DNA of 20,163 bases from a virus (IMGVR_UViG_2718218396_000005); one strand, 5' to 3'. Counted from the stretch's first letter, positions 4,027-18,113 are shown. Notes: generated from the letters alone by a model not told the origin. Translations and numbers: made by a program.

Positions 4027-6103
4027 TATCCGGGTCGCTTTCAGCGCCGTTGACAGGCTGACCCGACCTGCCGAAAACGCACGCCGCCTGATGGGGCAGT
4101 TTGGTGACTCCATCCAGCGAACGCAGGGGGCGATCAAAAATCTCGAGCGTCAGGCGCGATCATTTGAGCGCGCCCGCGACGCTGTCAGTAAAGCGGATGC
4201 TGGCATCGTGAAAGCACGACGCCAGCTTAACGCCCTTAATCAGTTACAACGCACGGGTACAGTGCTCAGCGAAAAACAACAAAAGCTGATGCAGCAGTTA
4301 AGCACCCGGCTTGAACGCCTGAATGAATCGCGCACACGGGAAATTCAGAAAATGAGGGAACTTGGCGGAGAGCTGAAACGCCACGGCATTTCCCTGACAG
4401 GCAGCGATAACACCATTCAGCAGGCCATCAGACGCACCGAACAATACAACAACCAGCTTGAACGCGAACGGCAGGCGCTTGCGCGTGTAACGCAGGCGCG
4501 TGAGCGGTATTCGCACGCGCAGGAAACCGCGGGAAAACTGAAAACAGGTGGTGCGCTGGCAATTGGTGCGGCAGCGGCGGGCGGCTATGCTGCCGGGCGT
4601 TTTTTGCAGCCTGCGATCGGGTTCGGCAAAGAGATGTCCCGCGTTCAGGCACTGACGCGAATCGACAAAAACAGCCCGCAGTTTAAGGCGCTGCGTGAGC
4701 AGGCGTTAAAACTTGCTGAAACACAGTTTACTGCGAGTGATGCCGCCAGTGGGCAGAGCTTTCTGGCAATGGCTGGTTTTACTCCGCAGGCCATTCAGGC
4801 CGCATTGCCCGGTGTTCTTAATATGGCGCTGGCAGGTGGCGTCGAACTCGGCGAGACGGCTGATATAGGCTCCAATATCCTCACACAGTTCAACCTGACA
4901 GCCGATCAAATGGACCGGGTGGGCGATACGCTGACAGCAGCATTTACCCGGACCAATACTGATTTACGCGCGCTGGGCGAAACCATGAAGTATACCGGTC
5001 CGGTTGCCGCAAAACTTGGTATCAGTCTTGAAGAAGCGGCGGCCATGGCCGGGATGCTTGCCAATAATGGTCTTCGCGGAAGCGATGCTGGCACGGCCAT
5101 GCGCGCAAGTCTGTCCCGCCTTGCATCACCGCCAAAAGCTGCGGCTGATGCACTGAAAGAGCTGGGGGTGTCAGTTGCTGAGGCCAGAGGCAAAATGCGC
5201 CCGATGGAGGATGTGCTGCTTGATCTCTATAAGGCGACACAAAAATACGGACAGGTGGACCAGGTCTCCTTCTTCAAGGACATCGCCGGAGAAGAGGCGT
5301 TCGTTGGTTTGCAGACGCTTGTTGCGGCGGCTGGTTCAGGAGAGCTGCAAAAACTGACCAGAGAATTGCAGGGGGCAAGGGGAGAGGCCGATCGCGTCGC
5401 AAAAGTAATGGCTGATAATCTTGATGGGGACCTGAAAAATCTCGACAGCGCATGGGAAGGTCTTCGTATTCGCATCAGTGATCTGGTTGACGGTCCGCTG
5501 CGTTCTGTCACGCAGTGGCTCACGCGGGTGCTTGAAAAAATCACCTCGCTGGCGCAGGCCCATCCGGTACTGACGCGCCAGCTACTGATAGCAGGCGGTG
5601 CGTTGCTGGCAATGACTGCAACGATTGGCTCGTTGTCGCTGGTTATTGGGGTGCTTTACGGGAAGCTGGCCACCCTGCGTCTTGGTTTTGACATTCTTAC
5701 CCGGTCAATGAATGTCGTCAGGGTGTTACCTGCGCTATGGGGAATGGTGACGGGTTCCGTTTCTTTACTGGGAGGCGTTATCGGGGCGTTGTTCAGTCCG
5801 GTTGGTCTTATCGTGGCTGCGCTTGCCGGAGCTGCCGTTCTTATCTGGAAATACTGGGATCCTATCAGGGCTTTCTTTGCCGGGGTGTTCAGCGGGATTA
5901 TGGAAAGGCTGACCCCGTTGCGCGACACCTTTGAACGGTTTGGCCCTGTTTTTGACGTAATCGGAAGCGGTTCAGCCAGGTGTTTAACTGGTTTAAATCG
6001 CTGCTGTCACCGATGGAGTCCAGCAAGGAAACGCTGGATAAATGTACCAGTGCTGGCGAGGTATTCGGTAACGTTCTTGGTGGTGCGTTACAGCTTGTTC
6101 TGA
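4013..6103 (+). CDS. T: Tail tape measure protein (P2 gpT family), N-terminal and central part, ending prematurely after an apparent frameshift near 5956-5980
   Basis: Long ORF straight after E/E'. Coiled-coil-rich N-terminal third, alanine/glycine-rich central part and hydrophobic segments are typical of tape measure proteins. ATG 4013 (MKTLDIRV) is preferred over the track's GTG 3977 because it overlaps the E' end. The last 45 codons (RCLTGLNRCCHRWSP...) look like out-of-frame junk. Confidence 0.75.
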   Translation: MKTLDIRVAFSAVDRLTRPAENARRLMGQFGDSIQRTQGAIKNLERQARSFERARDAVSKADAGIVKARRQLNALNQLQRTGTVLSEKQQKLMQQLSTRLERLNESRTREIQKMRELGGELKRHGISLTGSDNTIQQAIRRTEQYNNQLERERQALARVTQARERYSHAQETAGKLKTGGALAIGAAAAGGYAAGRFLQPAIGFGKEMSRVQALTRIDKNSPQFKALREQALKLAETQFTASDAASGQSFLAMAGFTPQAIQAALPGVLNMALAGGVELGETADIGSNILTQFNLTADQMDRVGDTLTAAFTRTNTDLRALGETMKYTGPVAAKLGISLEEAAAMAGMLANNGLRGSDAGTAMRASLSRLASPPKAAADALKELGVSVAEARGKMRPMEDVLLDLYKATQKYGQVDQVSFFKDIAGEEAFVGLQTLVAAAGSGELQKLTRELQGARGEADRVAKVMADNLDGDLKNLDSAWEGLRIRISDLVDGPLRSVTQWLTRVLEKITSLAQAHPVLTRQLLIAGGALLAMTATIGSLSLVIGVLYGKLATLRLGFDILTRSMNVVRVLPALWGMVTGSVSLLGGVIGALFSPVGLIVAALAGAAVLIWKYWDPIRAFFAGVFSGIMERLTPLRDTFERFGPVFDVIGSGSARCLTGLNRCCHRWSPARKRWINVPVLARYSVTFLVVRYSLF

Positions 6104-8090: not shown

Positions 8091-8622
8091 TATTGTGGGG
8101 CGACTGGCCACTCAACATCCGCTGCTACTGTTGTATCAACACGATTCAACAATACCCGATATGTCTTCCATGCAGCCAGTAACGATGCCTCTTCCTCCGT
8201 CGCAATATCCAAATCTACGGCATCCTGAAGTGGCGCAATATGCTCACTGGCTACCTGCATCAGGCTGTTTTTTGTTTCTTCTGCCTCCCGTACCCGAAAC
8301 AGTTTTTCTGCTTCTGCATCTTTCGCCCAGGATGTGCCGTTCCACTTCTGACACTCTCCATCCGGCGACAACCAGGTAACATTTTCCGGTAACGGACCGA
8401 GTTCAGAAATAAATAACGCGTCGCCGGAAGCCACGTCATAAACCGTTTTACCCCGATGATCTTCAACGAGATGCCACGATGCCTCATTACTGTTGAAAAC
8501 AGCCACGAAGCCAGCCGGAATATCTGGCGGTGCAATATCGGTACTGTTTGCTGGCAGACCTGTATGAGGCGGAATGTATGCGTCACCTTCACCAATAAAT
8601 TCATTAGTTCCGGCCAGCAGAT
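8090..8622 (-). pseudogene. tfa: Tail fibre assembly protein (Tfa / P2 gpG family), 5' end removed by the IS629 copy at 8623
   Basis: Track ORF 8090..8506 ([57 protein letters not shown]...). The same frame stays open upstream to the IS boundary, reading [39 protein letters not shown] before the GTG. This matches my memory of E. coli Tfa proteins, which have about 15 more residues at the N-terminus. Confidence 0.7.
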
Positions 8623-9679
8623 TGAACCGCCCCGGGAATCCTGGAGACTAAACTCCCTGAGAAAGAGGTAAACAGGATGACTAAAAATACACGTTTTTCC
8701 CCCGAGGTCCGTCAACGGGCAGTCCGTATGGTTCTGGAAAGTCAGGGCGAATATGACTCACAATGGGCGGCAATTCGTTCCATTGCCCCAAAGATTGGCT
8801 GTACACCAGAGACTCTGCGTGTGTGGGTTCGTCAGCATGAGCGGGATACCGGGGGCGGTGATGGTGGACTCACCACCGCTGAACGTCAGCGTCTGAAAGA
8901 GCTGGAACGTGAAAATCGTGAACTGCGCCGCAGTAACGATATCCTTCGCCAGGCTTCCGCTTATTTTGCGAAGGCGGAGTTCGACCGCCTCTGGAAAAAA
9001 TAATGCCGCTGCTGGATAAGCTGCGTGAGCAGTACGGGGTCGGACCGGTATGCAGTGAACTGCATATTGCCCCGTCAACGTATTACCACTGTCAGCAACA
9101 GCGACATCATCCGGATAAACGCAGTGCCCGTGCGCAGCGCGATGACTGGCTGAAGAGAGAGATACAGCGCGTATACGATGAAAATCATCAGGTGTACGGT
9201 GTGCGTAAAGTCTGGCGCCAGTTGTTACGCGAAGGTATCAGGGTGGCCAGATGTACAGTGGCGCGCCTCATGGCGGTTATGGGACTTGCCGGTGTTCTCC
9301 GGGGTAAAAAGGTCCGTACTACCGTCAGCCGGAAAGCCGTTTCCGCAGGCGACCGCGTAAACCGTCAGTTCGTGGCAGAACGTCCTGACCAGCTGTGGGT
9401 GGCTGATTTTACTTACGTCAGCACATGGCAGGGCTTCGTCTATGTGGCGTTCATCATTGATGTGTTTTCCGGATGTATCGTGGGGTGGCGAGTCTCATCG
9501 TCTATGGAAACGACATTCGTGCTGGATGCACTGGAGCAGGCGTTGTGGGCCCGTCGGCCGTCCGGCACAGTCCATCACAGTGATAAAGGTTCTCAGTATG
9601 TATCACTGGCCTATACGGAGCGACTAAAAGAAGCAAAACTGCTGGCATCAACAGGGAGTACAGGTGACTCGTATGACAA
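8623..9679 (+). mobile_element. IS629-like element, second copy, truncated at the 3' end (first 1057 of 1310 bp); no right inverted repeat and no target duplication
   Basis: Colinear with copy 1 from the left end TGAACCGCCCCGG (8623) through position 9679, with one mismatch seen in the translation (copy 1 T353 vs copy 2 C8776; OrfA Cys vs Arg). From 9680 the sequence is unrelated and AT-rich. Confidence 0.8.
8677..9003 (+). CDS. IS629-like transposase OrfA (copy 2)
   Basis: 108-aa ORF identical to copy 1 OrfA except C->R at residue 34. Confidence 0.8.
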
Positions 9680-9692
9680 TGTATTTTATTAG
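9003..9692 (+). pseudogene. IS629-like transposase OrfB, truncated (about 225 of 295 codons); the ORF reads through the deletion junction
   Basis: Identical to copy 1 OrfB through ..STGDSYDN, then 3 junction-derived codons (VFY) and a stop. It lacks the C-terminal part including the E of the DDE region, so this copy cannot supply its own catalytic subunit. Confidence 0.8.
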
Positions 9693-9711: not shown

Positions 9712-10026
9712 TTATTCTGGGAATAAGGTCTGAATATTCTTTTTTATTTTATAAAAATTGCATTCAACTCCGCTAGGCTGATTAGCCTGGTATGTTTCCT
9801 TGATGCTAACGGTATTGAAGGGGAGGTTGTCCTCTGGCCATTCGGCCATCCAGTAGGCAAATGCTGGGTTGCGCTTTATGAGTGCTAGCCCAGCCAGAAA
9901 GGCCGCGCGTTGCGCGCGGCTGCGTTCGGAGGCTGGCAGGCTATCGAGGTAATTGCACGCCTCCTGTTCACTCTTGACGGCGGCGGGCTTCAGATAGAAA
10001 CTTATCCGTCTGGTTGGTGTCGTCAT
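9712..10026 (-). CDS. parR: ParR-like ribbon-helix-helix centromere-binding protein (type II partition adaptor)
   Basis: 104-aa ORF just downstream of parM. N-terminal region ISFYLKPAAVKSEQEACNYLDSLPASERSRAQRAAFLAGLAL parallels R1 ParR as I recall it (IAFKLNPDV.....DTLDSIPQGERSRLNRAALTAGLAL). It ends soon after a ..LFPE motif, so it is shorter than R1 ParR. Confidence 0.7.
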   Translation of the reverse strand: MTTPTRRISFYLKPAAVKSEQEACNYLDSLPASERSRAQRAAFLAGLALIKRNPAFAYWMAEWPEDNLPFNTVSIKETYQANQPSGVECNFYKIKKNIQTLFPE

Positions 10027-10030
10027 TGGT

Positions 10031-10990
10031 TTACTCCTTGTTCATTGCGTACAACCCATTAACCAGAGCAAACTGTGGCACCCCGTCCGCGATGAAAGTC
10101 GCATTAACTCCGCAGGCTTCGCGGATAGCGGTTGCCACAATCTCCGCCCCGCCACCGACAACCATCACCCGCCCGTAACCCGAAAAAACCGCCAGCGCGC
10201 GGATCACGCGTTGTTTCAGTGTTTCTTCCTTTTCACGAATAACCGCCATCAGGCTGGCGTAATGCGCGTCATTGTGGATGTGCTGGCGCAGCCAGGCTTC
10301 ATCATGGCGATGTTCGATAATGGTATTGGCGATGTGGTGACTGGTGCGCATACCGTTAGTGGCCATCACCGACAGTACGGCATCGGCCATCAGAGAAACG
10401 CCTACGTGTGGATCGCAAAACACCTGGCTGATACCTGCCAGTTGCCCCTGAACCTTTGCCACATCCAGCGTGGTTCCGCCCAAATCCACAATCAGCAGGG
10501 ATTCAAACGGACTCATGTCAGCCAGTGCCTTAAAGCCAGCAGGAATGGATTCAGGCATAACCCGTACGTTACGGATAGTGAATGCTTCGCCGTTCTGGTA
10601 CTCCACCGGGCGCATGACGTTCGCTTTTTTGCGGTTGATGTTGGCCATGTCCGGCTGTGCGTTTGTATCGAAATACTCGCTCAGTGGCAGGGTGACAACC
10701 ACATCCACTTCCTGTGGTGTGATGCCTGATTTGACCAGCGCGTGATGAATGGCAATTACATTCACATCGCTGTACTGGTATTGCGTGTCGGTCGTCTGGA
10801 CAAAGCGATCGCTGACCGGATCAAAACCATAGCGCACGCCATCAAGCATGTAGTTCGCGGGCTGCGTGCCACCGAATGGCGCAGACCATTCCGACTTGAA
10901 GCTGTTCGGGCTGATGGCGTTGCGGCGTTCGCCGTTCTCAGTCCATGCCAGCTTGATGTTGGTGGAGCCGTCGTCGATACAAATTTTCAT
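10031..10990 (-). CDS. parM: ParM/StbA-like actin-fold ATPase (type II plasmid partition motor)
   Basis: 319-aa ORF. Blocks IDDGSTNIKL, ISPNSFK, YSDVNV..HHAL, MPESIPAG, DLGGTTLD, GVSL, GGGAE and LVNGLY line up along the whole length with R1 ParM as I recall it. Confidence 0.8.
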   Translation of the reverse strand: MKICIDDGSTNIKLAWTENGERRNAISPNSFKSEWSAPFGGTQPANYMLDGVRYGFDPVSDRFVQTTDTQYQYSDVNVIAIHHALVKSGITPQEVDVVVTLPLSEYFDTNAQPDMANINRKKANVMRPVEYQNGEAFTIRNVRVMPESIPAGFKALADMSPFESLLIVDLGGTTLDVAKVQGQLAGISQVFCDPHVGVSLMADAVLSVMATNGMRTSHHIANTIIEHRHDEAWLRQHIHNDAHYASLMAVIREKEETLKQRVIRALAVFSGYGRVMVVGGGAEIVATAIREACGVNATFIADGVPQFALVNGLYAMNKE

Positions 10991-11132
10991 GTCGCTTTTC
11001 CTTATGTTGATTAATTAATCGGTTACAGGATTTTTAAATCCCGCTTTTGCCTGTTTTGTGCGCGCTTCATATATCGCGGCGCGTTTTTTGCTCATTTACG
11101 GGATTTGTGAGTCCCGTTTCTGTCTGTTTTTT
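10991..11132 (-). promoter_or_regulatory. Candidate parC-like centromere/promoter region upstream of parM, with two imperfect direct repeats of about 34 bp
   Basis: ACAGGATTTTTAAATCCCGCTTTTGCCTGTTTTGTG (11027-11060) and ACGGGATTTGTGAGTCCCGTTTCTGTCTGTTTTTTG (11099-11132) are about 80% identical, and each holds a short internal inverted repeat. The second copy lies inside the 3' end of gene A. Confidence 0.3.
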
Positions 11133-13889
11133 GTTTCCACTGGTCAGGCCACCCCGCAGCAGGTCTGCTTTGCGGCTGGCGCGTTCAGTGGTTTCACTGA
11201 TTCTCTGTGCGTGCTCTGCGTCGCGGATGGCGCGCAGCATGTCAGAAAGCACGGTAACGGGTGTTTTCATGGTGTTCTGGTCCTGCTGAAGTGTGGATGC
11301 CAGGCGTGCGGCGGCTTCAGGGTCTGATGCCCCCAGCTGTGCCAGATAGCTGGCGACCGGGTTATGGCGGATCTCCGTGCTGCTTACGCCATGATTACGG
11401 CTCAGGCGCTGCCAGAGCTGCGTGATTCGGCTGTCCGGGCGGGTATCCGGTTTGCGTACAATTTCAAATCCCTGCGGTGCAATGATGCTGCCGTCAACGT
11501 ACAGACTGCCGCCCCGTAACAGGTGCTGCATCTGTTGTTCACCGATATGCAGGCCGAGAGATTCAGCAGACTCCCGCCATTCTTTAGCGAGTAATTCGTG
11601 GTTATCAGGCAAAGGCCGCTGCTGTTTGCGGCTCTGTGTCCAGCTCTGCATTTCATCACTGCTGTTTTTTGCCTGTTTGTCACGAAGCGAACGCATCAGC
11701 GCCCGGCGTTCGTGCCGTTTCAGTGAGCGCATCCATTCGTTCACGTCAACGCCGTCAGGAAGCTGCGGCCACGGTGCTGGCCGTTCTTCCGGCTGTTCTG
11801 TCCCGTTGTTGTCCGTTTCCTGTACACGGGGACAGTTATTGCCACGAGTCCAAGGGGCGGCAGGGCCGCCCTGAAGGTCAAAACCATTTTCGCGGGCGCT
11901 GTCTTCTACTCCCGGTTTACGTCTTACCAGCTTCCAGTTATCCGGGTGCGTGCACACACGGGAGGATTCCCCGATGAGTGGTGACCAGATCCCGTAAATC
12001 TGTACGCTCTGTTCGCCGTAATCGTTCAGCTCATCTGCGAGGTCGTAGGCGGTGCGAATCAGGTAGTCCTTGCGTGGAACAAGTACGCCTCCCTGTTTCT
12101 CAATGTAGGTGGTAAAACATCCGGCATCAGCGGCAGCAAGAACCGCATCCATTGCGTCATCCTTCAGCCGTTGCGGGCCTTCCGGGTTGCGTGCCATCTG
12201 GCTGGCAAGGCGACGCAGTTCACGCCACACCTGACGGGAGGGGATGCCAAAGAACTGGAACTGGCGGACCCGGTGAAGGCGCGCCCAGCCAATGGCGCGT
12301 TCCACGCTCTCGGTCATTGATTTTCCGGTTTCGTGGTCAACGCGTGGTTTGCCTGTTTTCGGGTCGATGCCATCCACGGCGCGGCTGTCCAGGTTTTTTC
12401 CGATGTAGGTGGCGATGTAGCTGGTTGGCGTGCCTTTTGAGCCGTCGACATACTCCGCCTTAAAGCGCGGAGTAATATCATCGCCCAGCTCGTGACGATC
12501 TTCCTGAATGGCAATATCGCGGGTGTGGGACACAATGGTGTCGATTTCTTCCGGATGAGCAAAGACCATCATATGCCAGTGCACGGTGCCGTCATGGTGA
12601 GGCTCCACCGTGCGGATGCCATACCAGCGCAGGCCGTCGCGGTTCAGTTTCTTGCGGACCGCCGCAAAAAACGTGTTAACCAGGTAATCGCTGGAGTCGC
12701 GCATGGTGGCCCCGTTCCATTTGGGATTCGGATGACCGTTCTCTGTTGTAGCGTGGTATTTTGACGGGCAGGTGACAGTCAGAAACACCGCTTTGTCGCC
12801 ACGGGCTTCGGCCAGAAGTTCCAGCCCCTTCATGGTGGCCATCATTTCTGCCTTACGGTGAACCGGGTTACTTACTCCCGCGTAATACACTGTCTCGAGA
12901 TCAATCGTGAACCCGTCTTCGTTTTCCAGCATGAAACTTTTCAGGAAATCGCGTGTTTTCTCGCGCTGTGCGCGAAACTCGCTTAACGCGTCCTGGCTCA
13001 GATAGGGCGATGTTTTTCTGGAAACCAGACAGGCGGCGCGGAGTTGTTCTTCTCTCCACTCGCAACGTAACAGCCACAGTTTGCGTTTCCACCATTCCGC
13101 ACAGGTCAGGCGAAGGATTGCGCCCGGCAGCAGCTCCGTGTCCGGTTCGTTCCTCCGGTCTTTGTCTGTTGTCAGTGCGTCATAATGTGGAGGCATGGCG
13201 TGCAGGTGTAACGCCATGCGGGCCAGCATCTGATACGCCTTCAGCGTTACATCCATGGTCAGTTCGCCATCGGTCGCGCCAAAGCCATCGCAGAGTTTTT
13301 CGAAGGTGCTGCTGAACATCGCCGCCGTCATGGTGGCCAGCGTCTGTATCTGGTGTTTGTTGAGCTGCGGCAGGTAAAGCAAATCGTCCAGGCGTTCGCG
13401 TCCGGCAAGGGAGCGATAACCCTGTGTCAGCCAGCGGTGATCGGTGCGCTCCAGACGTTCGAATATTTTGCGCAGGTTTCCGCGCGCGTAGCGTTCAGCC
13501 TGCCAGCTCTTTTTGCCTTTCTGACGATCGGCTTCCTGTTTTTTGCGCAGGAAGGAGAGGTGGCGAATAAGCGGATCGCGCAGATAGGACGGCAGCAGGC
13601 GCAGCGAGGCCATGGCTTCATCCACCGCACCGCGTGCCTGTTTTCTGGCGTCTCCTGCCAGTGTGATGGTTTTGTCCTGTTTTTCCTGTGCGTCCAGGCT
13701 TTTATTAATCAGGTTGCCCAGCGGCGTTGCGGAGAACGCCGCATCAGCCATTTCCTGGCGGCGCTCGTTCTCTACCCGGTAGGCATCCAGCCAGGAGGAA
13801 AGCGCGGATTCAGGAGCGGGGATCCCCGTTCCTTCACGCCCCACTGCGTGGCGCGGTTGTTGCCAGTCCCTGATGTACTCTGCCGTCAT
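11067..13889 (-). CDS. A: Replication initiation endonuclease (P2 gpA / phiX174 A superfamily rolling-circle initiator)
   Basis: 940-aa ORF with an HUH-type motif (GTVHWHMMVFAH) and a paired-tyrosine motif (SYIATYIGKN) resembling the phiX174 A active site YVAKYVNK. It sits at the end of the early operon as in P2. Confidence 0.8.
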   Translation of the reverse strand: MTAEYIRDWQQPRHAVGREGTGIPAPESALSSWLDAYRVENERRQEMADAAFSATPLGNLINKSLDAQEKQDKTITLAGDARKQARGAVDEAMASLRLLPSYLRDPLIRHLSFLRKKQEADRQKGKKSWQAERYARGNLRKIFERLERTDHRWLTQGYRSLAGRERLDDLLYLPQLNKHQIQTLATMTAAMFSSTFEKLCDGFGATDGELTMDVTLKAYQMLARMALHLHAMPPHYDALTTDKDRRNEPDTELLPGAILRLTCAEWWKRKLWLLRCEWREEQLRAACLVSRKTSPYLSQDALSEFRAQREKTRDFLKSFMLENEDGFTIDLETVYYAGVSNPVHRKAEMMATMKGLELLAEARGDKAVFLTVTCPSKYHATTENGHPNPKWNGATMRDSSDYLVNTFFAAVRKKLNRDGLRWYGIRTVEPHHDGTVHWHMMVFAHPEEIDTIVSHTRDIAIQEDRHELGDDITPRFKAEYVDGSKGTPTSYIATYIGKNLDSRAVDGIDPKTGKPRVDHETGKSMTESVERAIGWARLHRVRQFQFFGIPSRQVWRELRRLASQMARNPEGPQRLKDDAMDAVLAAADAGCFTTYIEKQGGVLVPRKDYLIRTAYDLADELNDYGEQSVQIYGIWSPLIGESSRVCTHPDNWKLVRRKPGVEDSARENGFDLQGGPAAPWTRGNNCPRVQETDNNGTEQPEERPAPWPQLPDGVDVNEWMRSLKRHERRALMRSLRDKQAKNSSDEMQSWTQSRKQQRPLPDNHELLAKEWRESAESLGLHIGEQQMQHLLRGGSLYVDGSIIAPQGFEIVRKPDTRPDSRITQLWQRLSRNHGVSSTEIRHNPVASYLAQLGASDPEAAARLASTLQQDQNTMKTPVTVLSDMLRAIRDAEHAQRISETTERASRKADLLRGGLTSGNKKQTETGLTNPVNEQKTRRDI

Positions 13890-13895
13890 AGTGAT

Positions 13896-14261
13896 TTACT
13901 TCGTCATGCCATTCAGGGTGTCGCGGCAGGCTGTAGCCAGCCGCTGAATTTCCAGCACGGTGTCTTCTGTGTCGGCATGGCGATGTGTGATGCGGATGCT
14001 GTCGGCAATCACATCGACGATTGCAGAGGATGGGCGCTGGTAAATGCCAATAACGGACGGGGTGCCACCTTCAATGCGGTAAAGCCTGTAATTTCCCTCG
14101 TGGCTGTCAATCATGTAGCGACCATCAATAACAATCTTTCCGTCAGCGAGCTGCGGTACAGGCAGGGATTTCAGGTACATGTCATAACGATCACGCACGC
14201 GAGCGGCAAGATCACGTTCTGTGTTGAGCAGGTATTCAAGAAAGTCGTTGGCGAGAATCAT
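13896..14261 (-). CDS. Hypothetical early-operon protein (121 aa) immediately upstream of A
   Basis: ORF in the track whose stop is 6 nt before the A start. No family recognised. Confidence 0.55.
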   Translation of the reverse strand: MILANDFLEYLLNTERDLAARVRDRYDMYLKSLPVPQLADGKIVIDGRYMIDSHEGNYRLYRIEGGTPSVIGIYQRPSSAIVDVIADSIRITHRHADTEDTVLEIQRLATACRDTLNGMTK

Positions 14262-14333
14262 TGCGGCAATCCTCTTGTTACAGATGTGCGAAGGCCTCCC
14301 GCCGCAAGGTGCAGGAAAGGCCCGGAACAGGAA

Positions 14334-14564
14334 TTAATGGAGTTTGTTTTGCTGCTGGATGAGCTGTTGAAACTCGTGCAGATCATCCGCCAGATAGCTG
14401 AAAACAGAGGCGGAATAAATGTTTGATAGTGCGTGGCTGCGCTCATGCAGCATATTGATGTGCATGATTTGCGCGACGCGTGATGCGCGGGAAAGTCTGC
14501 GGTTGATTTCAGTCTGGATGTGACGACGCTCCGCGATAGCGCGGTGCTGTTTGCGGTCTGCCAT
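14334..14564 (-). CDS. Hypothetical small basic protein (76 aa)
   Basis: ORF in the track with an AAGAGG-type RBS (reverse complement of about 14572-14577) 7 nt upstream of the ATG. Basic and helical in character. Confidence 0.5.
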   Translation of the reverse strand: MADRKQHRAIAERRHIQTEINRRLSRASRVAQIMHINMLHERSHALSNIYSASVFSYLADDLHEFQQLIQQQNKLH

Positions 14565-14744
14565 GGTGTGGCCTCTTTGCTCGGTGATAGAAATAACTCA
14601 CCATCCAGAGTTGAGAATCTCGGGGTGGCGAGACGTACAGGGTTCTCAACACCGGAGAGCAAAGAATCCGGCCCGACCGAAGTCGGCCCCGTACGCCCCG
14701 CCATAATTCTGACGCGAAAAAGACGTGGCAATACAGTACGCACA

Positions 14745-14765
14745 AAAAAACCGCTAGCGCGGTTA
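14745..14765 (-). terminator. Rho-independent terminator inside the early operon (minus strand)
   Basis: On the minus strand, stem AACCGC / GCGGTT with loop GCTA followed by a run of T (plus strand A run at 14745-14751). It lies about 120 nt downstream of the 99-aa gene stop. Confidence 0.45.
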
Positions 14766-14886
14766 TGCGCTTTGCTCTGTATCGGGTTGAGAATCCCGGC
14801 ACCCGTTTTATGAGGTGCAGCGGAAATGTAACCTGACCGATTGCGGCATGGCAAGCGGTTTTTTTGTGTGTGCATGTTCTGGTTTC

Positions 14887-15186
14887 TTACTGGTTCAGAA
14901 AAAAATCAAAAACGTTATCGATGCGTTGCAGCAGCTCTTGCTGCATTGCTTCCGGCGTTTCCGGTTCGCCAGGTGCCCCCAGCGTTGCGCAGAAATCAGC
15001 GATTTCATGATGGAGCGTGAGGCGAATGGCAGGAGCCGTGGTTCTGGCGTGCTCCAGCTGATCCAGCAGTGCCAGCACAGCAGACGGCGAGAGCATTGCG
15101 CGAAATGCCAGTAATTTTTGAGGCGTTGCCATTCGTTGCAGGGCAAATGCCAGTTCGCGTAGCTTCTGGTGGTTGATGGTGCTCAT
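14887..15186 (-). CDS. Hypothetical early-operon protein (99 aa)
   Basis: ORF in the track; its start overlaps the stop of the upstream 88-aa gene (ATGA-type overlap at 15183-15186). Confidence 0.6.
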   Translation of the reverse strand: MSTINHQKLRELAFALQRMATPQKLLAFRAMLSPSAVLALLDQLEHARTTAPAIRLTLHHEIADFCATLGAPGEPETPEAMQQELLQRIDNVFDFFLNQ

Positions 15187-15449
15187 GCTCTGGCTTCCTT
15201 CAGTAGCTGGTTAAACATGTGAGTAAGTGGATTGCTACACCCGAACGGCATCGGGTTTACGTGGTAAGAAGCCTGGCCTCCTGTTTTGCGAGCGCGACCA
15301 CCTGTGCTGCGGTTTGTTCTGATGACTAAGCCGCCGCGCCAAAGTCGGCGTAACTCAGCATTAATGGCTGTGGTTGGGGTATTCAGTGCTGCGGCGATCT
15401 CTCCGCCGCTACACCCCGGATGAGTAGCGATGTAGTCCAGAATGGTCAT
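15183..15449 (-). CDS. Small winged-helix DNA-binding protein (88 aa)
   Basis: ORF in the track with a helix-turn-helix-like segment GCSGGEIAAALNTPTTAINAELRRLWRGGLV. Translationally coupled to its neighbours. Confidence 0.6.
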   Translation of the reverse strand: MTILDYIATHPGCSGGEIAAALNTPTTAINAELRRLWRGGLVIRTNRSTGGRARKTGGQASYHVNPMPFGCSNPLTHMFNQLLKEARA

Positions 15450-17708: not shown

Positions 17709-18113
17709 ATGAAAAATGATATTGGTCGGCGGTTGCGTGAGGAAAGGGAAAGATTGGGACTTAGTCAAGTTGCCATGAGCGACATTGGTGGAGTCAAAAA
17801 GCTAACTCAGCTTAGATATGAGAAAGGAGATAGCTTTCCTGATGCTGCGTATTTGGCAGCGCTGTCTCGTTTTGGCCTTGATGTTCAGTATGTTGTGTTG
17901 GGAATTCACTCACCTGAAACTTATAACGATGATGAGCAGGAATTGATTACTCGCTTTCGAGCAGCTTCGTTAGATGTGAAAAACGCGGTGATTGGGGCTT
18001 TAAAAGGTGCGATCAGTGAAAAGGAAACTCAGCCATCAGGACGTGAGTTAAATATTTCTGGTGGTAATAACCGTATCGCTGGTCGTGACTATAACGAAAC
18101 TAAGGGTAGGTGA
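17709..18113 (+). CDS. XRE-family helix-turn-helix immunity repressor (P2 C / 186 CI equivalent)
   Basis: 134-aa ORF with an N-terminal HTH (RLREERERLGLSQVAMSDIGGVKKLTQLRYEKGDSFPDAAYLAALSRFGLDVQYVV). It is divergent from the Cox-like operon and co-directional with int, as in P2/186. Confidence 0.75.
   Translation: MKNDIGRRLREERERLGLSQVAMSDIGGVKKLTQLRYEKGDSFPDAAYLAALSRFGLDVQYVVLGIHSPETYNDDEQELITRFRAASLDVKNAVIGALKGAISEKETQPSGRELNISGGNNRIAGRDYNETKGR

Follow-up and report, generated by a model that had tools for sequence, protein, structure and literature searches.

In the immI region of phage P1, the C4 segments a' and b' pair with a1b1 upstream and with a2b2 at the ribosome-binding site of the first open reading frame (ORF), so that the downstream antirepressor is not made. 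Such RNAs have been described as the 'IsrK-C4 immunity system' in P4, P1, P7, N15 and lambdoid Salmonella prophages, with IsrK corresponding to seqA and C4 to CI RNA (PMC3632133, PMC4825925). In Gifsy-1, translation of the antirepressor depends on RNA interplay, and the compensatory mutations sit at the positions equivalent to b1 and b' (PMC4825925). We analyzed a viral stretch of 20,163 nucleotides (nt), IMGVR_UViG_2718218396_000005, which is called the window here. Over the part studied here, the window was 100% identical to Escherichia coli O157:H7 chromosomes, adjoining yecA, and the prophage is Sp13 (P2-like, strain Sakai) or a near-identical relative. Between the genes for a 99-amino-acid (aa) and a 76-aa protein, an island of about 320 base pairs (bp; 14565 to 14886) carried no feature in the RefSeq annotation. 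With good confidence, we read this island as a complete P4/P1-type IsrK-C4 RNA immunity cassette in the early operon of a P88-like prophage, gating an epsilon-like gene. Given the same RNA matches in the same order and the epsilon homology, the island and the 76-aa gene are the counterpart of PLE-seqA-cI-seqC-epsilon in P4. No paper describing an RNA cassette in Sp13 or P88-like phages was found.

Two RNAs and their target sites

All features below lie on the minus strand unless the plus strand is named. A C4/CI-type antisense RNA was identified at 14708..14621 (Rfam RF01695, 78.5 bits against a cut-off of 45, model positions 1-87 of 87). It had the C4 architecture, with a 17-bp outer stem around hairpin 1 (UUCG loop) and hairpin 2, and its minimum-free-energy fold was that of the family consensus (-47.6 kcal/mol, z = -4.9). 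The GC hairpin that the original prediction had placed at about 14671-14689 is hairpin 1 of this fold. The covariance analysis proposed there against homologous regions also came out positive, as 14 of the 27 C4 pairs showed compensatory changes in 55 homologs, which were gathered with a pattern fixing part of hairpins 1 and 2. The hairpin-2 loop held the segment a' (AUUCUUUGCUCU, 14667..14656) and the junction held b' (GUUGAGAAC, 14650..14642); the recognition sequences in the window are UCUUUGCUC for a' and GUUGAGAA for b'.

Upstream of C4, an IsrK/seqA-type leader RNA was found at 14818..14744 (Rfam RF01394 isrK, 63.0 bits against a cut-off of 50, model positions 1-77 of 77; fold z = -2.7). 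It folded into hairpin 1 (14818..14799) and hairpin 2 (14798..14783), the loop of which holds the target b1, and the terminator scan returned an intrinsic terminator with its stem at 14764..14749 and a U7 run to 14744. Hairpin 1 and the terminator were invariant across homologs, while b1 and a1 were variable. A sigma-70 promoter was predicted by consensus scan at 14865..14825, comprising an UP-element-like A7 tract (14865..14859), a -35 element TTGCCA (14854..14849), an 18-nt spacer and a -10 element TACATT (14830..14825). The predicted start, at about 14818, is the first base of the IsrK match. The -35 element, the spacing and the -10 element were invariant in all 19 P88-like homologs, even those with a different upstream gene (alignment A1), and P4 has TTGCCT-18-TATAGT at the equivalent site upstream of its own isrK match. 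The layout of the isrK family, with two 5' hairpins, a Rho-independent terminator and a predicted promoter directly upstream, was found in full. A second, doubtful promoter-like match (TTGCCA-17-AATTAT, 14731..14703) lay between the leader terminator and C4. Its -35 element was TCGCCA in 7 of the 19 homologs, and transcription from it would have to begin within the outer stem of C4, which is implausible. By analogy with the described systems, C4 is more likely processed from read-through transcripts than started at this site.

Terminators had been proposed on both strands of the island. The minus-strand one was recovered as the IsrK terminator, and the plus-strand hairpin (14836-14859) followed by T7 (14859-14865) was also present. 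This hairpin could be a real terminator, or the 3' end of a small RNA (sRNA), for transcripts antisense to the cassette: both the hairpin and the T-run were kept in most homologs, L036 and L098 could form a smaller alternative hairpin, and a sub-threshold plus-strand Rfam Hrs13 match (15.7 bits against a cut-off of 52) overlapped it. We consider this unlikely. The fold was weak (-9.7 kcal/mol, z = -1.3), no plus-strand gene lay upstream, and no plus-strand promoter was found in 14000-15400. Conservation coincided precisely with the -35 hexamer and A-tract of the minus-strand promoter; in L036 and L098 the distal arm was replaced, whereas the -35 element and the A-tract were retained. In homologs where further genes separate the 99-aa gene from the cassette, no convergent gene ended at the hairpin. 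The plus-strand feature (14836..14865) probably reflects the promoter -35 element and A-tract.

The complements of a' and b' each occurred twice, in the order needed for antiparallel pairing. In the leader, b1 (UUCUCAAC, 14793..14786) formed the loop of hairpin 2, and a1 (AGAGCAAAG, 14778..14770) lay in the linker. The downstream target region followed C4 (14619..14572), comprised b2 (UUCUCAAC, 14617..14610), a spacer hairpin and a2 (GAGCAAAGA, 14582..14574), and is equivalent to P4 seqC or P1 a2b2. The a2 site overlapped the Shine-Dalgarno sequence AAGAGG (14577..14572), located 7 nt before the ATG at 14564. The four complementary sites of 9, 9, 8 and 8 nt were never obtained all at once in 200,000 shuffles of a' and b'. 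The predicted duplex between the C4 recognition region and the downstream stretch reached -29.1 kcal/mol, against -16.7 ± 3.9 kcal/mol for non-cognate pairs.

These sites account for the repeats from which the original prediction had started. All the features it described in the island were present, with coordinates 1-3 bases off. The direct copies of GTTGAGAAYC were GTTGAGAATCTCGG at 14610-14623 and GTTGAGAATCCCGG at 14786-14799 (given previously as 14611-14624 and 14788-14800), and the inverted copy was GTTGAGAACC on the minus strand at 14641-14650. The 20-kb window contained three copies of the motif, all within the island, against 0.07 expected, and three copies were reached in none of 100 shuffles. 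A second repeat set had been missed: CTTTGCTC occurred at 14575-14582 (plus), 14770-14777 (plus) and 14657-14664 (minus), with five copies in the window against 0.83 expected. The inverted GTTGAGAAYC copy is the single-stranded C4 junction, and the direct copies are the IsrK hairpin-2 loop and the site just 3' of C4. The earlier suggestion of a small antisense RNA gene thus held for the C4/CI-type antisense RNA and its IsrK/seqA-type leader, but not for opposite-strand transcription; both RNAs are on the same strand as their own targets and pair via short complementary segments.

The first gene predicted to be gated by the RNA is the 76-aa gene (14564..14334), a homolog of the P4 derepression gene epsilon. 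Its product matched Pfam PF25738 Derepression at 31.9 bits against a cut-off of 27 (P4 epsilon itself scored 170 bits) and aligned with P4 epsilon at 32% identity over 50 aa (BLASTP, E = 6e-9). RefSeq names the product 'derepression protein'.

Co-variation of the recognition code

A search with the 76-aa protein gave only close E. coli relatives, and viral contigs were therefore scanned with a DNA pattern of the invariant C4 core. The scan returned 120 loci, 83 of which passed the outer-stem test. These 83 loci represented 55 distinct a'/b' combinations, with matching targets in the cognate flanks at fixed offsets. On the P88-like scaffold, b1 was at -89, a1 at -74, b2 at +7 and a2 at +41/42; on the P4-like scaffold, b1 was at -119 or -164, a1 at -103 or -148, b2 at +8 and a2 at +39. 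When cognate and non-cognate flanks of the 55 a'/b' types were compared for an exact complement of at least 7 nt, a' found one in 80% of cognate upstream flanks and 78% of cognate downstream flanks (5.7% and 4% in non-cognate flanks, respectively). The corresponding values for b' were 95% upstream and 89% downstream, against 5.2% and 2.6%.

In 13 P88-like specificities, b2 at +7 and a2 at +41/42 were both found, with matching sequence changes. The predicted downstream duplexes of these specificities had a cognate mean of -27.4 kcal/mol against -16.7 ± 3.9 kcal/mol for non-cognate combinations, and the leader duplexes a cognate mean of -28.1 kcal/mol against -18.3 ± 3.7 kcal/mol. When 19 P88-like cassettes were aligned, the promoter, IsrK hairpin 1, the terminator, the C4 stems, the Shine-Dalgarno sequence and the ATG were almost invariant. 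Variation was limited to b1, a1, a', b', b2 and a2, which changed together. The spacer hairpin between b2 and a2 was retained with differing sequence, and (A)GAGG followed by ATG came after a2 in the homologs. Taken together, the target co-variation, the cognate duplex energies, the invariant scaffold and the compensatory pairs provide strong evidence, from sequence comparison, that the RNA-RNA pairings are under selection.

The same co-variation and compensation are hard to reconcile with a protein-binding or a coding explanation. A cluster of protein-binding sites had been among the original suggestions, and GTTGAGAAYC and CTTTGCTC are indeed short direct and inverted repeats near a replication gene, as operators or iterons for a DNA-binding protein could be. 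We judge this highly improbable. One copy of each motif was always in an exposed segment of structured RNA, in antisense orientation, and the motifs differed between phages with flanking proteins 95-99% identical. They tracked neither the epsilon allele nor the repressor type; the repeats co-varied with the loops of structured RNA, not with any neighbouring protein.

It is more improbable still, to the point of being nearly negligible, that the island encodes an 'Ash family' protein through a 205-aa ORF. Such a protein would be in line with a weak Pfam PF10554 match (E = 0.0027) and with the PGAP label 'similar to ash family protein' on the homologous part of PV468777. The match to PF10554 Phage_ASH reached only 18.6 bits, below the cut-off of 26, and in most homologous regions all sense-strand frames were interrupted by stops across the island, in agreement with the earlier statement that it holds no convincing ORF. 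Variation was confined to RNA loops and targets, and the stems changed by compensation. A protein-coding reading was rejected on the sub-threshold match and the interrupted frames.

The Ash family model itself deserves comment. PF10554 matched residues 22-85 of the obsolete 'cI protein' ORF of P4 (L002 8168-8584, minus strand), a stretch made up of CI RNA and seqC, with no more than the initial dozen codons of the next ORF. In the window, it weakly matched the junk ORF (14258-14875, minus strand) over IsrK and C4. Since the P4 match lies almost wholly over CI RNA and seqC, an RNA gene read in translation seems to underlie PF10554 and the PGAP name 'ash family protein'; genuine epsilon falls under PF25738. 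As a by-product for annotation, the Pfam/NCBI 'Ash family' appears to represent a translated IsrK-C4 region and not a protein. A census of P4-like satellites used PF10554 as the epsilon marker (PMC8628076).

At least 13 a'/b' combinations were observed on the nearly invariant P88-like scaffold (L001, L017, L025, L028, L029, L036, L066, L074, L085, L098, L117, L119 and the window at 14642-14667), and a' and b' reassorted independently. The b' sequence GUUGAGAA was paired with three different a', and the b' of L074 (AGUUCCAA) was present too in the unrelated elements L011, L049, L067 and L120. In L017 (about 5190-5230), the leader b1 (TTCTCAC) mismatched the b' of its own C4 (UGUGGAAA) while b2 matched; this leader looks like a recombinant.

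Proposed regulation and competing explanations

By analogy with P1, P4 and Gifsy-1, the cassette would operate as follows. The promoter at about 14865-14825 would start the leader, and most transcripts would end at the intrinsic terminator, giving an IsrK/seqA-like RNA of about 75 nt. Read-through transcripts and those from the early promoter would carry the C4/CI-like RNA, from which, by homology, RNase P would excise a stable RNA of about 80 nt; the sequence hints at such processing are only a tRNA-acceptor-like stem and the ACCC tail. The a' and b' segments of C4 would then pair with b2 and a2 just downstream, a2 covering the Shine-Dalgarno sequence of the epsilon-like gene. Left untranslated, the RNA would be prone to premature termination, and expression of the replication gene A would be kept low. 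In the leader, b1 and a1 would compete for the same C4 segments as a decoy and attenuator able to relieve the block, and the 76-aa protein, once made, may act as an antirepressor. The outcome would be a second, RNA-based gate on immunity and induction with its own sequence specificity. The original prediction had suggested a terminator/antiterminator switch controlling A. The intrinsic terminator and the position upstream of A agree with that suggestion, but direct control of A does not; the immediate target would be the ribosome-binding site of the 76-aa gene, and A would be controlled indirectly, by polarity or termination. The earlier interpretation of the island as a whole is partly supported.

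The phage has a protein repressor of its own, a 134-aa helix-turn-helix protein (17709-18113). In the comparison of related loci, one a'/b' type occurred with three different repressors and one repressor with two codes. By analogy, the cassette would add a second layer of immunity that does not depend on the 134-aa repressor.

Several observations weigh against the reading of the island as an IsrK-C4 cassette gating an epsilon-like gene. About three epsilon-like alleles coexist with at least 10 repressor types in related phages without tracking them, and no correlation was found between epsilon alleles and either repressor types or a'/b' types; since the alleles do not track repressors, a P2-type C repressor, the partner expected of an epsilon protein, is no more than a candidate target of the 76-aa protein. 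The C4 3' tail after the outer stem is ACCC, against ACCA in many homologs, which makes RNase P processing an assumption. The Rfam c4-a1b1 model (RF03163) reached only 15.9 bits against a cut-off of 46.7 at 14831..14779; P4 itself narrowly misses this model (44.1 bits), and the isrK model covers the same stretch. The catalogue of Hfq-crosslinked sRNAs of O157 Sakai (Tree 2014) had none in Sp13, which is not decisive, and published catalogues of O157 sRNAs listed nothing for Sp13. As Sp13 is defective and carries insertion sequence (IS) insertions, the cassette might be idle there. Finally, the primary effect may be either on translation or on termination.

This last point bears on a mode of action closer to that of P4, in which C4 pairing with the leader and downstream sites would silence A through premature transcription termination and not through a translational block. 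The layout is closest to P4, where CI RNA is a termination factor acting via seqA and seqC (PMC4825925); an intrinsic terminator is present in the leader, and A is at the operon end. That a2 overlaps the Shine-Dalgarno sequence, in the window as in almost every homolog, nevertheless argues for at least a translational component, and the terminator-like matches from C4 to A were all weak. Both modes could operate together, and we regard termination as the primary mode of silencing as a tentative alternative, possible but short of probable.

The leader could instead be the main regulator, and a positive one, in the manner of Gifsy-1 IsrK. It would then bind the read-through transcript or C4 in trans and activate translation of the epsilon-like gene, leading to induction. 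The isrK family match and the complementarity of b1 and a1 to a' and b' fit this proposal, as does the precedent in Gifsy-1, where IsrK supplied in trans increases translation of the antirepressor about 140-fold and STnc1160, a processed RNA of about 80 nt, sits at the C4-equivalent place. The proposal needs C4-type repression to relieve, which makes it a complement to the C4-centered model and not a rival; no Hfq-bound sRNA has been reported in Sp13. A leading, activating role for the leader has a real chance of being correct, although we hold it somewhat below even.

An inert cassette in a decaying prophage would be in keeping with the IS3-family insertions in the window and with the reported lack of most morphogenetic genes in Sp13 (PMC2669165). 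Against such decay, all four targets were still perfect matches to a' and b', sequence at least 99% identical was present in 469 E. coli records, and Sp13 excises and replicates after mitomycin C treatment (PMC2669165). That the cassette is a mere relic is hence improbable in our view.

With these results, an unannotated 320-bp gap becomes two named RNA genes with their targets. If the C4 cassette works as proposed, an RNA-controlled antirepressor gate would stand before the replication gene of a prophage in most O157:H7 genomes. It would offer a concrete candidate reason why mitomycin C induces Sp13, a response that has had no explanation (PMC2669165). By the co-variation data, the a'/b' segments form a diversifying specificity code common to P2-like phages, P4-like satellites and further viral contigs with C4, with a bearing on helper-satellite and prophage-prophage cross-talk. 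A bolder proposal, speculative and at present rather unlikely, is that the P88-like, helper-type lineage of the P2 family, O157 Sp13 included, shares the whole RNA-immunity and derepression cassette with P4 satellites as an independent second immunity layer, and that the modular hypervariable code (at least 13 specificities, some b' shared across element types) determines whether a helper, satellite or lambdoid prophage can silence or derepress another one resident in the same cell. Were this true, the RNA code could also account for the induction of Sp13 by mitomycin C in spite of a repressor without a cleavage domain. Two aspects merit follow-up: the modular, hypervariable code of two segments, and the presence of the cassette in helper-type phages as well as in their satellites.

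Host prophage and comparison with known systems

Gene order in the window was that of P88-like (Xuanwuvirus) phages of the P2 family. The early operon started with an Arc-like gene at the Cox position (near 17.6 kb), followed by several small genes, a MarR-like 88-aa gene and the 99-aa gene (15186..14887) next to the island, all on the minus strand. After the 76-aa gene, the same operon continued with a 121-aa gene (14261..13896), the product of which has no known function, and with A (13889..11067), a replication endonuclease of 940 aa that matched Pfam PF05840 Phage_GPA (E = 2e-131); both genes are presumably subject to the polarity or termination imposed by the cassette. The 121-aa protein had no similarity to P4 orf151, and PHROGs gave just 'unknown function'. 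The order MarR, 99-aa gene, cassette, epsilon-like gene, 121-aa gene and A was common to the window and 22 P88-like loci. The features of a P4-like satellite (alpha primase-helicase, sid/psu/delta and an absence of tail genes) were not those of the window, and tblastn with P4 alpha and orf151 gave no match in the window or in the P88-like loci. Of 5,426 complete E. coli genomes, about 1,164 had a match over 80% or more of the island.

Where the 99-aa gene meets the cassette promoter, the loci have a slot of variable content (L066, L097, L017, L119; L074, L025; L098, L036). It lies at about -1260 to -230 before C4 in L066, L097, L017 and L119, and at about -820 to -180 in L074 and L025. Some P88-like phages have additional genes in the slot, for instance a 67-aa membrane protein with a 276-aa lipoprotein-like ORF, or an ORF of 183-212 aa. 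Beyond the slot, homology to the window restarted exactly at the A-tract before the -35 element.

Directly 3' of A, the window contained ParM (StbA) and a plasmid-stability/ParR-like gene (9712-10990, minus strand), which were kept in P88-like phages such as PV468777; this pair hints at a plasmid-like maintenance option for the P88-like lineage of the P2 family. Two copies of an IS3-family element were present (254-1467 and 8677-9692), both with a 108-aa orfA of equal length and an ALIL frameshift pseudoknot at 120.9 bits. The second copy was apparently truncated (orfB of 229 aa against 295 aa), and these copies fit a prophage that is defective. Between the tail genes and the second IS copy, at 8127-8325 on the minus strand, Rfam IS009 (RF02111) was matched over its full length (191 bits against a cut-off of 117). 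In earlier work on Sp13, which lacks most morphogenetic genes, mitomycin C was found still to trigger excision and replication, and Asadulghani 2009 remarked on its epsilon-like gene (PMC2669165).

Outside the P88-like group, P4-like loci had the order orf88, cassette, (epsilon, orf151) and alpha. In other contexts, the first ORF likewise began 52-61 nt after C4. Its products included Rha, the N-terminal domain of the P22 antirepressor, another Derepression protein, an intein-bearing helicase and a Tad2-like domain; genes downstream of C4 were often of antirepressor type (Rha, P22 Ant N-terminal domain, Derepression). In L011 (2013-2270), the first C4-gated gene carried a Tad2-like (Thoeris anti-defence 2) domain (Pfam E = 4e-6), and an 85-aa ORF was found at the equivalent offset in L067 (5995-6252) and L120 (3831-4088). 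Judging by this domain match, an anti-defence gene may be under antisense-RNA control in the L011-type element. In L004 (2210-5050), a 946-aa helicase (ResIII/Helicase_C), interrupted by an intein, began 54 nt after C4. The P4-like prophage Sp2 of strain Sakai (L124 23520-23860) had its own IsrK-C4 cassette, with a' UUUCCAAUAAGG and b' UUACGCCAAC, and the RNA lay inside a coding sequence annotated 'phage repressor protein' (ECs_0300). As the codes differ, Sp2 and Sp13 are predicted to be hetero-immune at the RNA level. Shared specificity of Sp13 with Sp2 or with Stx2a phages was considered and rejected for the same reason, and no cross-talk is predicted.

Among described systems, phage 186 is a member of the P2 family with an antirepressor for prophage induction, Tum, according to its annotation. 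Tum is LexA-controlled at promoter p95 and lies downstream of A, in contrast to the epsilon-like gene here. Neither a C4 nor an isrK RNA was found in the scanned early regions of 186 and P2, indicating that the cassette, common in P88-like phages, is characteristic of that lineage rather than of the P2 family as a whole. The Stx2a-converting phages PA2 and Stx2_131990 had both Rfam families above cut-off, the same layout and a downstream site over a ribosome-binding site. They differed in their recognition sequences (UUCCCUUGAUUG / UGUGAGAAC for a'/b' in PA2), in the 215-aa regulator downstream and in their lambdoid host. The Salmonella locus isrK-orf45 (STnc1160)-anrP of Gifsy-1 resembles the island in its IsrK leader, read-through terminator, processed RNA of about 80 nt and antirepressor (PMC4825925). 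Gifsy-1 is lambdoid, however, its regulator was characterised as an activator, the C4 equivalent was treated as a small ORF, and AnrP is not epsilon-like.

With the immI region of P1 and P7 (c4, icd, ant), the window shares the RNA family RF01695. The differences lie in the antirepressor, Ant in P1/P7 and an epsilon-like protein here, in the icd-like ORF, which the window does not have, and in the plasmid state of those prophages against the integrated P2-like prophage.

The closest likeness was to P4, the immunity region of which, defined by genetics, gave in the same Rfam scan C4 at 8507..8420 (74.9 bits) and isrK at 8692..8615 (60.8 bits). The two RNA families, alike in order and similar in score, are thus common to both elements, as are a promoter-like site (18-nt spacer) directly before the leader and two-part complementarity upstream and downstream, the downstream site lying over a Shine-Dalgarno sequence. 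In both, epsilon or its homolog is downstream, and a replication gene stands at the operon end. The recognition sequences, in contrast, are unrelated (CCUGUGAA/UUCUCAC in P4 against UCUUUGCUC/GUUGAGAA), and the leader-to-C4 spacing is shorter in the window (b1 at -89 against -164). P4 has a kil/eta ORF, while the epsilon-like gene of the window follows directly, and the alpha primase of P4 is replaced by a P2-type A nickase. P4 is a satellite, whereas the window derives from a phage of the P2 family that has tail genes and a protein repressor of its own. The region is functional-looking yet belongs to a described class; what is new is the P2-family host, the directly gated epsilon-like gene and the replication gene A downstream.

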